From: a virus | Lineage: Duplodnaviria > Heunggongvirae > Uroviricota > Caudoviricetes | Direction: 5' to 3' (one strand) | IMG/VR virus record: IMGVR_UViG_2609459857_000001 | DNA length: 4,513 nucleotides | In this document: positions 1-4,513 of the stretch, one piece after another | How the letters are laid out: each line of letters begins with the position of its first letter | How positions within the stretch are numbered: position 1 is the stretch's first letter | Translations under genes and position numbers: made by a program | The notes under the pieces: generated by a model | What the model was told of the DNA's origin: nothing | What the model saw: only the letters and a program-made list of their open reading frames with translations | The model's database searches: none

Positions 1-322
1 GCGTATGAGCACCAATACCGACAGTATGTGCGTGTGCACCTGCGCTTGCAGCAGTACCCGATACAGAGTGCGTATGAGCGCCTGCAGAAGAAGTGTTAAC
101 ACTGTATTTAGAATAATCAGGTGATCCACTTCCCGGAGCACCACTGGAACCACCTGAAACAAATGTCATCGAATGGGTATGTGCACCGGCTGAAGCAGCC
201 GTACCGCTAACACTATGGGTATGCGCACCAGTGTTATTCGTGGATTTAGTGCCGTAATCAAACGACGATGTGGTTTTCGTCCCCAAATCCGTACTGGATA
301 CGCTGGCGCTGTGGGTGTGTGA
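1..322 (-). other. C-terminal His-x-His motif array of stf (probable metal-binding fibre tip), truncated by the window edge
   Basis: HTH occurs at Stf aa 976-978, 1008-1010, 1022-1024 and 1057-1059, HAH at 1071-1073, and a further His at 1080 sits at the window edge. The motifs are embedded in Gly/Ser/Thr/Ala-rich sequence. The 17-residue block [17 protein letters not shown] occurs twice (aa 1006-1022 and 1055-1071). Confidence 0.6.
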
Positions 323-3244
323 TTTAATGCCGTCCTGTTCCTGAGACAATACGGCTCGATCACTGGCGGGCTTGCCCTTAATCGTCCAGCCACGCATATC
401 AGGGATCACGCCTGACGGATAAGCAACTGCAAGTTTCGGGTAAGCAGATTTGTCAAAAGTCTGCCCCTGCATCAGGGCATAACCAGACGGAACGGTATCT
501 GATGGCCACGGGATTGGTGCGCCGACTGGATAAAACTCTGCAGGAGGATGAGCCGAGGTGTAAAGCTGCGCCCACGGCGACCAGTTTGCGTCGGTCGTAT
601 CCCGTCGTGAACGAATAAATGCCGGAGCATGATCGCCGCTGGTTCCACTCCAGCCAATAAGTAACTCACCCTCTCCTACTGCGGTTACACCAGTGAGATG
701 AAGCACATTACCATAGGTTGTTGGGTAGCCATTGTTGTATGCCTCATACATCTGAATGCCTGGTGTACCCTTTGCGCTCCCACTTAATGCCGTAACACGG
801 TTTCTGGATACTAACGTATTAATATTTATATCGCTGGAACCATCAAATTTAACTCCATTTATATTTATCGCATTTTGTAACTTGGTTGCTGTCAATGCGT
901 TACCGTTCAGACTTGCGGACAGTTTGGTTCCAATAACCAGTTCGCCGGTTGCGTTATCAATAGCAAACGGTCTTAATGTATTCCAGCCACCATAAACATC
1001 ACCTTGATTGGTAAGCAGCAGGTAAGTTTTAGCGCCATCATTACGCCATAATGCACCATACTCCCCACCTATCATTCGAATCTGATTACCACCACGCGCT
1101 ACAATTTCGTCTGTGGCAAAAAGTTTTTTGCACGACAAGTTATCGTTAACGATTAACGAATGAGACTCATAAAAACCACGCCCACTCTTAAAATCAAGGA
1201 TAACGTCCGCCGCGATACATTCAGTCGCCGGATTTGTTGCCCCAAACTTATAGGTCGTATCATTAACAACGAGATCAGCACCAGGTGCGGATATTGACAG
1301 GCCATCTTCGATAAACGCAAAAACAGGGAAAGCAGCGCCATCAACATAGAACACAGAGCGCAAATCATCGCCCTTATTACTCATCATTATTGAGTGGATG
1401 GCTCGTTCATTGTTTTGATATTGCCAGAACATTCCATAAGCATAACGCCCCCTGTCAGTCCAGCCACCAGGCATAACAAATCCGTTAAACTCGCAGTTAT
1501 TCATCGGATCGCCTGCGGTTCGCGTTGCCGTGGTGATAATGACCCTTGATGCCAGTTCGCTTACTGAGCCAGTAGAACGCATAACAACAACAGGGTAATA
1601 TTTTCCAGATGTTGCACCTGCAGGAGCGTTAACCCGCACATAACGCATACCACGCTTATCAGCAAAGTCTGTTTTACTGACCGCGTTAATGTTGTTCAGG
1701 AAGCGTCCCTTATCGGGTATATCAGCGCCGTTCTGGTCTTTCTGCAGACGTTTCTCTGCATTGTCATAGGCTGATTTTACTGCCTTTGGCGTTGCCGCCA
1801 GCGTTTCAGACGTACTGTTGGTCGCACTGCTGAGCTGTACTATCCCCTTTTTCGTCGTGCTTGCATCCTCAAGCGCCACGGCAGATGCAATATCCTCTGC
1901 TCGTTTTGCCGCTGTCTCGGCGCGCGTTGCCGCGGATTCCGCCGTACTTTTGCTCTGTGCTGCCGCCGTCGCACTGCCAGCTGCCTCTGTCGCCTTCGTG
2001 GATGCTGTCGTGGCGCTGCCCTTCGCTGCTGACGCCTGTCTGGTCGCCTCATCTTTTGAAGCAGACGCCGATGATGCCGATGACGCCGCCGAACTGGCGG
2101 ACGATGCCGCTGCCGTTTTTGAGGATTCTGCACGGGTTTCCGACGCTTTCGCGTTCGTTTCGGATGTCTTCGCTGCGGAAGCTGACCTCGCTGCTGCACT
2201 GGCCTGTTCAGTGGCTTCGCCAGCCTTCGTTGTGGCTGTTGAAGCGGACGATGCGGCGCTTTCTGCCGATTTTCCGGCGGCGCTAGCACTGGCTGAGGCC
2301 TGCCCGGCACTTGTTGACGCTGCACTGGCAGACGACGCAGCCGCTGTTTTTGAGCCTGCTGCTGCTGAGGCACTCTGTGCTGCTGCCGTTTCAGAGGACT
2401 TGGCGTTTGTCTCAGACGTCTTTGCCGCCTTCGCGGAATTTCCTGCCGCCGTTGCCGAGGAAGCGGCACTACTGGCGCTTGATGATGCGTTCGTTTCTGA
2501 TGATTTCGCTGCCTCTTTTGAGGCCGCCGCATCCCGGGCTGAGGTGGCAGCTTCTGACGCCTTTGTGGTCGCGGTGGATGCAGAAGTGGCTGCTGATTGT
2601 TGTGACGCTGCAGCATTCGTTTCTGACGTTTTCGCGGCACTGGCACTGGTAGCTGCCGCGCTTTTTGAGGACTCTGCAGCAGCAGCACTTTTCGATGCTT
2701 CAGTGGCCTTTGTTGATGCCGTTCCTGCGCTGGAAGACGCTGACTGAGCCGACGAAGCGGCCTGTCCGGCTGACGTGCTGGCTGCGCGTGCTGAGCCTGC
2801 AGCATCAGTCGCATGGGTTGCCGCCTCACGGGCTGATGTGCTGGCATCACTGGCTGACTTCTTCGCGGCTGCCGTGTTCTGTGCCACCACGGACGCGTTA
2901 CGCGCCACCTCTTCCACCATCAGCTCAAAACGGCGCAGTGCCTCCGGACGGGCATCATCCTCCGTCATGGCACCGAGAAAATCATTCAGCGTACCGGGTC
3001 GGGAATCTTCATACACTGTGATGGTCCCGGCATGTGACGGCGGGAATCCTTCCACCAACAGAATAACGCTGTACTGACCGTACTCAACGTCCATACTGTA
3101 ACGCCCGGCTTCATCCGGATTTTCTGAGGCCAGCGTGTTCACCACCACCGTGGTGCTGTTACGTTTTGCTTTCAGCTGGATTGTGCAGTTCTGTACCGGT
3201 TTTCCTGTGCCGTCTTTCAGTACACCTGAAATTTTTACTGCCAT
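1..3244 (-). CDS. stf: Side tail fibre protein of a lambdoid prophage (Stf family, long Rac-StfR-like form); 1081 codons in window, 3' end beyond the left edge
   Basis: ATG at 3244-3242 is preceded by GGGGUGAAU (SD-like). My hand translation of the minus strand gives [118 protein letters not shown]..., then a ~330-aa Ala/Ser/Thr-rich region, then ...[56 protein letters not shown]..., then ...[49 protein letters not shown]..., then ...KSHTHSAS...[20 protein letters not shown]...[27 protein letters not shown]. There is no in-frame stop across all 1081 codons. The N-terminus is recognised as the lambda Stf / E. coli prophage side-tail-fibre N-terminus. The frame is missing from the ORF track because no stop codon falls inside the window. 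Confidence 0.93.
362..523 (-). other. Phage tail collar-type domain inside stf (Stf aa ~908-961)
   Basis: Sequence [49 protein letters not shown] fits the collar-domain pattern P.G(W/Y)..(C/M).G......YP.L......G.(I/L)PD(L/M)RG as I remember it from the Pfam 'Phage Tail Collar Domain'. No HMM search was run. Confidence 0.6.
1775..1846 (-). other. Conserved phage tail-fibre motif ([24 protein letters not shown]-like) inside stf
   Basis: Stf aa ~467-490 read [24 protein letters not shown], followed by [12 protein letters not shown] recognise this as the short motif widely shared among tail-fibre proteins (P2/lambda/T-even types). The Pfam assignment was not verified. Confidence 0.5.
1874..2860 (-). 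repeat. Protein-level heptad repeat array inside stf: 47 consecutive 7-residue units of form x-S-A-x-x-A-x (Stf aa ~129-457), a probable trimeric coiled-coil shaft
   Basis: Parsing the translation in sevens from K129 gives [56 protein letters not shown] ... TSETNAK ... [21 protein letters not shown] with no register break. Ala sits at positions 3 and 6 of almost every unit and Ser dominates position 2. The sub-motif (T/S)SETNA(A/S/K) recurs at aa 206, 248, 276 and 360, with spacings of 42, 28 and 84 residues, all multiples of 7. At DNA level the units use varied codons, so this is a coding periodicity rather than a tandem DNA repeat. Confidence 0.8.
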
Positions 3245-3255
3245 ATTCACCCCAC

Positions 3256-3308: not shown

Positions 3309-3908
3309 TCAGAACTTATAACCGACACCCACGATGAAACCGTCAGTGCGCCAGTCGCCACTGCCGGAGCCTTCATAAGCAATATCAATGGCCACGGATT
3401 CGGTCGGGTTAAACTGCACGCCAGCTCCCCACGCCAGAGACGTGTTGCTGTGGCGACCGTCATCACTTCCGGTCAGCACATCGTGCGTTTTCCCCTTGTT
3501 GTCAGTTACGCGGAGATAATCCCCGGAGAAAGTCGACACACGGCTGTAAGCCACACCCGCCATCGCATACGCGCTGAACCATTCATTCACGCGTACAGAC
3601 GGCCCCGCCATCACGCTGAACCAGCGGTTACGCACGGAATCTTCATGCCAGCGGGTATCGCTGTAACGGGTAATCTGGCGATTCTTGTCTCCTGCATAGC
3701 TGAACGACGTCACCATTCCCAGAGTGTCCGTAAACTCATAACGGTATTTCACGTTAATCCCGTTCAGATCATCGCTGCCGGAAACGTTCGTCGAGGCATG
3801 AAGATAGCCCGCGCTCAGCGTGGACTGATGTTCAGACGCCCATGCAGGCGCACCGGATACGGCCAGACAAATGGCTGCGGACAAAATGGCGGCATAAAGT
3901 TTACGCAT
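3309..3908 (-). CDS. lom: Outer-membrane protein Lom (Ail/Lom/PagC family 8-strand beta-barrel), a lysogeny-expressed accessory ('moron') gene
   Basis: 199-codon ORF with ATG at 3908 and TGA at 3309-3311. N-terminus [24 protein letters not shown] is a typical Sec signal peptide ending in an AxA cleavage motif. C-terminus ...GVGYKF has the terminal aromatic residue typical of beta-barrel outer-membrane proteins. The sequence is recognised as near-identical to phage lambda Lom, and it sits between J and stf as in lambda. Confidence 0.95.

Positions 3909-3974: not shown

Positions 3975-4513
<539 letters not shown>

Follow-up and report, generated by a model that had tools for sequence, protein, structure and literature searches.

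An exact 17-residue repeat with divergent codons at the tip of a lambdoid side tail fibre and its counterpart in the T4 gp37 needle

The 17-residue peptide that is encoded twice at the distal end of the side tail fibre gene (stf) described here, with every amino acid the same and most codons different, very probably corresponds to the ascending and the descending strand of one section of a trimeric, six-stranded, iron-binding needle that bears the receptor-binding head, the two copies being ancient paralogues under purifying selection. The repeat is already known as a structure (the gp37/Stf needle), as a Pfam repeat and as a landmark of recombination, and its protein-identical but DNA-scrambled state is to be expected of a repeat that is ancient and held by a structural constraint both strong and symmetric. 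The DNA analysed, hereafter the window, is the whole stretch of 4,513 nucleotides from IMG/VR virus record IMGVR_UViG_2609459857_000001, of which a preliminary description had drawn attention to the repeat.

Locus and gene content

The window contains three genes on the minus strand in the order J-lom-stf, which is the lambdoid arrangement:

1..3250, minus strand: stf, side tail fibre gene; GTG start at 3250 and ATG at 3244; the 3' end lies beyond the window, with ~37 codons missing.
3309..3908, minus strand: lom; PHROG 108, Lom outer membrane protein (E=4e-109).
3975..4513, minus strand: 3' end of tail tip gene J; matches PHROG tail fibre and central tail fibre J families, with the same synteny in the homologous locus L001.

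The stf ORF matches PHROG tail fibre families with E values down to 8e-211, and its N-terminus resembles the annotated Stf of PhiR42_1, a phage with the same gene order and with annotated Stf, Tfa and Pin-type recombinase. Its position downstream of J and lom, together with the tail-fibre N-terminal and shaft domains recognized by PHROG and Pfam, places the product among the lambda-type Stf proteins. The last 1200 nt of the gene are 99.8-99.9% identical in two Escherichia coli chromosomes (loci L002 and L003) in which the full 3' end is present, and the 37 missing C-terminal codons were supplied from these two loci. The window stops within stf; in the homologous loci L001, L002, L003 and L086 the gene is followed by tfa, and in T4 gene 37 is followed by gp38.

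The central part of the Stf shaft (window ~1800-2850) is of low complexity, rich in Ala, Ser and Thr and with KTSETNA-like repeats, and this composition gives rise to very long spurious ORFs, such as those at 1818-2747 on the plus strand (309 aa) and 1840-2850 on the minus strand (336 aa). Alternative-frame ORFs over the repeat region (e.g., 166..393, minus strand) were likewise rejected as mechanical, being inside a strongly supported CDS. Just 5' of the tip (window 535-1200; residues 208-307 of L003) the shaft carries a Gp34_trimer domain (PF21446, E=1.6e-27), and the joining of this shaft variant to this tip is rare, most alleles (e.g., that of PhiR42_1) having an unrelated segment there.

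The repeat in protein and in DNA

Re-translation gives the same peptide twice in the stf frame, on the minus strand at 229..179 and 82..32, with 17/17 residues identical, exactly as the preliminary description had placed it. The protein match continues one His further on either side, and the chance expectation of an exact 17-residue repeat at the composition of Stf is ~1e-12. In DNA, the copies are direct repeats 147 bp apart that differ at 17/51 nt (66.7% identity) and at 12/17 codons, one codon more than the 11 counted at first, when one Ala or Thr change had been missed; the codon pairs then quoted as examples are all correct. The longest in-register identical run is 8 nt. At three Ser positions the copies also switch between the AGY and TCN codon families, as had been pointed out (copy 1/copy 2: AGT/TCT, AGC/TCG and TCA/AGC), with 2, 3 and 3 base changes needed, in each case at least the two that were claimed. 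The only DNA-level repeats in the region are short His-box 13-20-mers, the 13-15-mers at 73-93% identity, while no inverted repeats were found in the repeat region and the 221-nt region folds no better than shuffled sequences (z=-0.94).

The extent of this divergence was compared with a null model of two independent back-translations of the peptide using the gene's own codon usage. Identical codons number 5/17 against 5.4-6.0 expected (P(<=5)=0.41-0.53), in a comparison of 17 codons only, where a modest selective lowering of DNA identity would escape detection. The null predicts 37 +/- 2.6 identical nucleotides (34/51 observed) and a longest identical run of 8.1-8.5 nt (8 nt observed), and it gives a switch of codon family at all three Ser positions, as observed, a probability of 0.09. 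When 13 lineages are pooled, identical codons at identical residues amount to 78/197 (0.40, compared with 0.32-0.35 expected), slightly above random. We relied on this null because the NG86 estimates between the copies (dN=0.22, dS=2.28) include a non-zero dN that is an artefact of the AGY/TCN paths. The synonymous sites of the two copies are fully randomised and not more different than random, with no signal of selection for dissimilarity.

Homology to the T4 gp37 tip

In a phmmer search against PDB, the last 214 residues of Stf matched the T4 gp37 tip (2XGF chain A; E=1.7e-87, 296 bits), with query residues 66-279 aligned to chain residues 28-242. This entry is the crystal structure of the T4 gp37 long tail fibre receptor-binding tip (Bartual et al. 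2010). The seven HxH boxes are spaced by 32, 14, 35, 14, 9 and 9 residues in Stf and by 32, 14, 37, 14, 9 and 9 in T4, box 6 (partly) and box 7 having been read outside the window, from the 99.8% identical L003. The assignment of the repeat to the fibre tip and its association with HxH motifs, both already made from the letters of the window, agree with this match, and the tip can be laid out as follows:

1..535, minus strand, continuing past the window: T4 gp37-like receptor-binding tip (collar, needle and head), by phmmer against PDB 2XGF chain A.
380..523, minus strand: phage tail collar domain PF07484 (Pfam, 46.8 bits, cut-off 24), mapped from residues 453-500 of a full-length homologue.
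311..319, minus strand: His box 1 (H-T-H within KSHTHSAS), upstream of box 2 at a spacing of 32 residues, as in T4 gp37.
179..229, minus strand: copy 1, predicted ascending needle arm, reaching from His box 2 to box 3, of which it takes in the first His; aligned with T4 gp37 G913-H929.
173..181, minus strand: His box 3 (H-T-H), overlapping the final codon of copy 1.
83..172, minus strand: head, predicted receptor-binding segment of 30 residues, the core of a hypervariable cassette; aligned with T4 gp37 ~932-963.
32..82, minus strand: copy 2, predicted descending needle arm, reaching from His box 4 to box 5, of which it takes in the first His; aligned with T4 gp37 G964-H980.
26..34, minus strand: His box 5 (H-A-H), read from the sequence.
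2..13, minus strand: first part of His box 6 (GAHT..), truncated where the window ends; the full gene goes on with the rest of box 6 and with box 7.

The start of copy 1 (residues 548-561) also matches the 14-residue Phage_fiber repeat PF03335, with 29.2 bits against a gathering cut-off of 20. The 30 residues between the copies align with the T4 head, the site of host-range and receptor-contact residues, and this head is hypervariable between conserved needle strands, at least 10 unrelated heads having been found between conserved arms and flanks.

In T4, gp37 is a trimer and its tip a six-stranded antiparallel needle, in which the chain goes up to the head and then back down, with seven irons along it held by the HxH histidines (PMC6957217). 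Since the T4 chain takes this path, one and the same part of the needle would be formed by copy 1 on the way up and by copy 2 on the way down. Two contacts between T4 chains bear on how the arms face each other, namely that of G921, which packs on F970 of another chain, and that of G964, which contacts the iron ligand H929 of a neighbouring chain (Islam et al. 2019, PMC6957217). In the numbering of the arms obtained by alignment, G921 and H929 are positions 9 and 17 of the ascending arm, and G964 and F970 are positions 1 and 7 of the descending arm, and the published contacts therefore suggest that the arms are antiparallel partners with i+j ~16-18. From these two contacts and the residue mapping we infer that the arms pair about an approximate two-fold axis perpendicular to the fibre. 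Equivalent positions with equivalent surroundings would fit the matching observed at position 7 across 24 distinct arm pairs (V/V in 9/24, L/L in 3 and F/F in 1), as well as the complementary G/F solution of T4.

On this basis, each copy would span the 14-residue interval between successive HxH boxes, and in the trimer the three HxH motifs of each level would give six histidines to one iron ion in octahedral coordination, with the inter-box residues, all of them small (G, A, S, T and V), allowing tight packing of the six strands. Antiparallel arms related by an approximate two-fold axis would offer the same environment at equivalent positions and favour the same amino-acid optimum, and this pseudo-dyad would be the reason for the sequence optimum shared by the arms. 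The arm units would be ancient paralogues, older than the divergence of the T4 and lambdoid forms of the module, with synonymous sites that would have become fully random and amino acids that purifying selection would have kept equal or close to the family consensus in both arms, which gives 17/17 in the cassette lineage of the window. For the Stf of the window, iron binding and trimer packing are predicted by analogy with T4. The exact identity of the arms could come in part from convergence or from the history of the cassette lineage; the arms of T4 are identical at 8/17 positions, so the constraint is not absolute.

Comparison with relatives

The relatives compared were 80 IMG/VR loci, the T-even phage AV116, T4 and three metagenomic contigs. 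Among 24 distinct arm pairs, from cassette types that are not phylogenetically independent and whose counts overstate the number of independent observations, identity between the arms ranges from 8/17 (T4) to 17/17, the latter being seen with two different heads, and the arm pair of the window is the top of a continuum rather than an outlier. In four head types the arms are identical at 16-19/19 residues and yet share just 6-8 codons, the PISQ type, for instance, combining 19/19 identical residues with 6 codons in common.

Across about 13 related tip lineages, the DNA of the arms groups by position and not by gene. In 23/24 cases the nearest DNA neighbour of an arm is the same-position arm of another cassette, and the mean DNA identity is 0.70 between ascending arms and 0.77 between descending arms, compared with 0.65 (within a cassette) and 0.63 (between cassettes) for ascending with descending. 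Most types carry the same Ser signature, ascending arms having AGY, AGY, TCN and descending arms TCN, TCN, AGY; T4 shares the pattern at positions 8 and 13 (ascending AGT, ACA; descending TCT, AGT), and the pattern at positions 6 and 8 is common to a metagenomic lineage that is ~61% identical. Because a change between AGY and TCN requires a non-serine step or a double hit, the arms appear to have been separate lineages since before the divergence of the module, and their grouping by position, which holds across deep lineages, lets plain age account for how far their DNA has diverged. In one head type (SVTG/SVIG; L044, L046, L047 and L063) the descending arm has the ascending-type Ser codons AGT, AGC and TCT and the ascending arm has AGT at position 13, which hints at a past exchange of arms between the two positions.

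When cassette types are compared, the codon differences in the arms number 780 synonymous and 269 non-synonymous (omega 0.01-0.2), and the arms of the SMTF and PISQ types differ by 16 synonymous changes and 1 non-synonymous change. Positions 10-14 are variable in the ascending arms of relatives, which read STNAA, STGSA, TANSA or STNTT there. Arm units of 14 residues are present on both sides of the head in 39 tips and absent in 40, and the 4 mismatched tips are all evident deletion derivatives.

Several propositions of the preliminary description can be judged against these data. Strong purifying selection on the motif is borne out, for relatives keep the motif under saturated synonymous change. 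The codon divergence of the copies proved to be largely conserved, as the Ser AGY/TCN pattern recurs across cassette types and in part in T4. The proposed old duplication holds as an ancient split, the arms grouping by position, but not as an event peculiar to this gene, since the needle module is shared with T4 gp37 and PF03335. The two copies, whose constant presence it had proposed to check, occur together or are both lacking, save in the 4 deletion derivatives.

Along the needle, the number of ascending 10-residue TSSFDYGTK repeats tracks the number of descending 9-residue (T/S)VxIGAHTH units in the listed homologues P0001-P0120: a gap of 32 between boxes 1 and 2 goes with two descending units in 53 tips, and a gap of 41-42 with three units in 24 tips, P0059 being the exception. 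The needle thus seems to lengthen by matched up-and-down module pairs.

Mosaic junctions and distribution of the tip cassette

Compared with other stf alleles, the DNA of the window is near-perfectly identical up to codon 6 of copy 1, and in the constant 3' flank it becomes identical again from about codons 10-15 of copy 2. An exchangeable tip cassette is bounded by constant flanks that take in the first 6 codons of copy 1 and, in copy 2, the final ~4-8 codons. In these alignments each arm copy is part constant region and part cassette, and the arms are the sites at which tip cassettes are joined to the constant fibre. The head of the window is found at 88% DNA identity in gp37 of the T-even phage AV116; head and descending arm of AV116 are 88-91% identical to those of the window, and the core of its ascending arm is different.

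The head cassette is present in 618 of the 5426 complete E. coli genomes (~11%), while the combination of shaft and tip seen in the window is represented in only 2/5426, when coverage of at least 80% of the last 1200 nt is required. The same tip cassette also occurs at 100% identity in plasmid tail fibre genes, both in H93 (NZ_CP122497.1, a 107-kb E. coli plasmid) and in 7 other plasmid places; the plasmids that carry it are presumably phage-plasmids.

In many decayed prophages, fragments of J, capsid, tail tube or small terminase genes are fused to the fibre tip, as at 2480-2520 of L086 (a Qin-like remnant of E. coli BUCT2930) and in P0015, P0024, P0029, P0030, P0067-P0069, P0093, P0106 and P0118. 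Several of the fusion junctions are at or beside the THS of the ascending His box 2, or at CAGCCGG within copy 1, and P0030 and P0067 have a common breakpoint in J (..KYDTPIT) with different joining positions in stf. These fusions, with their recurrent breakpoints, look like microhomology deletions.

Alternative explanations

A different history of the ascending arm, which would once have been of the STN type found in T4, AV116 and PhiR42_1 and would later have evolved to the descending peptide, or been replaced with it by recombination with the ascending arm of another lineage, so that the identity would not go back to a common ancestor, is unlikely, and it is a variant of the explanation preferred here, not an alternative mechanism. 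It draws on AV116, whose orthologous head adjoins a different ascending arm (GAHTHSLSGSTNTTGAH), with DNA homology to the window only from ~codon 13, and on the greater variability of ascending arms (172 non-synonymous codon differences vs 97 for descending arms), whose core appears to assort as a mini-module, the ascending arms of the SMTF, PISQ and TVAC types being 84-91% identical in DNA. However, ascending arms of the form SVSGTAAS(A/S)G occur in the distant metagenomic lineages L087 and L088 (61-62% overall identity), and such TAAS-type arms favour TAASA as an old ascending state, i.e., its retention. Saturation prevents the polarising of these changes, and the proximate structural constraint is the same either way.

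It is improbable that selection keeps the arms dissimilar on the ground that identical direct repeats would delete the head by homologous or slipped-strand recombination. Deletions between other boxes give the idea some substance: His boxes 4 and 6 share an exact run of 14 nt (GCTCATACGCACTC) within a match of 18/20 nt (90%), at window 66-79 and 1-10, the second site continuing off the window (5619-5638 and 5688-5707 in L003), and a 23-residue deletion (GAHTHSV|AIGSH) in P0012 (2 members) and P0013 (11 members) is exactly what a crossover between boxes 4 and 6 predicts. Other small between-box deletions are found in P0053 and P0099, and no headless ascending/descending recombinant was found among the 120 listed homologues. 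In T4 gp37, small-domain duplications arise between His boxes. Duplications of a small gp37 domain in T4 are named in the title of Tetart et al. 1996. On the other hand, the identity of the arms is not below random, in the window or in the pooled lineages, and their position-wise grouping across deep lineages makes age sufficient; moreover, other box pairs of the same gene retain 14-nt identities, which speaks against efficient purging, and second-order selection of this kind is expected to be weak. Selection against recombination between the repeats, which the preliminary description had entertained beside an old duplication, is thus unneeded. An actively maintained loss of arm similarity, with long identical runs leading to loss of the head by Red/RecA or slippage deletion, accordingly has little to recommend it; if true, fibre-tip genes would owe the scrambled codons of repeats that the structure demands to selection against recombination.

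A recent intragenic duplication whose synonymous sites then changed unusually fast, or a match due to chance or low complexity in a region biased towards G, A, S, T and H, is almost certainly wrong and was rejected, since an exact 17-residue match by chance is as good as precluded by the expectation given above, identity of the copies in nucleotides and codons is not above the level expected when the peptide is encoded twice independently, none of the relatives has the near-identical DNA arms that the preliminary description had named as a sign of recent duplication (maximum 10/14 codons), and Ser codon-family differences common to cassette types and T4 are impossible from a recent event.

Significance

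With the copies read as paired strands of an ancient needle, what is new is mild, namely the obligate pairing of ascending and descending modules and the frozen signature of Ser codon families. The needle would consist of matched pairs of modules, one ascending and one descending, whose gain and loss go together, and the AGY and TCN families would serve as frozen markers of two arm lineages that were already distinct before the T4/lambdoid split. In practical terms, the analysis gives the exact placing of the head (window 83-172), the two arms and the cassette junctions for a tip cassette that is found in about one in nine complete E. coli genomes, and junctions situated inside the arms are useful for the design of Stf or gp37 chimeras. 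Beyond annotation, the finding matters little.

Comparison with known systems

The closest known system is the T4 gp37 tip, which is alike in its collar, its needle with seven HxH boxes, its variable head between boxes 3 and 4 and its C-terminus (..NTVKNIAFNYIVRLA). The two differ in the arms, which are only 8/17 identical in T4 (GGHTHSGSGSTSTNGEH vs GNHSHTFSFGTSSAGDH) and 17/17 identical in Stf; in T4 an arm with G7/G9 faces an arm with F7/F9, Gly packing on Phe, whereas Stf has V7/G9 on both arms. The head sequence of T4 is unrelated to that of Stf, and the Stf module sits on a lambdoid Stf shaft.

The repeated unit of the arms in the window is the 14-residue Phage_fiber repeat of PF03335, a motif known in T-even adhesins as the GxHxH "His boxes". 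Work by Tetart et al. in 1998 is said to have described the exchange of T-even adhesins at conserved motifs. The mosaic junctions of the window's cassettes lie inside boxes and arms, as in T-even adhesin exchange. Exact 17-residue identity of arms with fully randomised codons was not found described in the literature, in which the boxes are treated as DNA or protein motifs that mediate exchange.

The lambda-type Stf loci are alike in their J-lom-stf synteny and, in the homologous loci, in the genes for a Tfa chaperone and a Pin recombinase downstream. In the lambda-type Stf/gp37 receptor-binding family (Magaziner and Salmond 2022, PMC9659904; Ur-lambda structure paper, PMC12617516), a tip of ~215 residues is conserved, the differences being concentrated in the specificity region, as they are in the Stf of the window.
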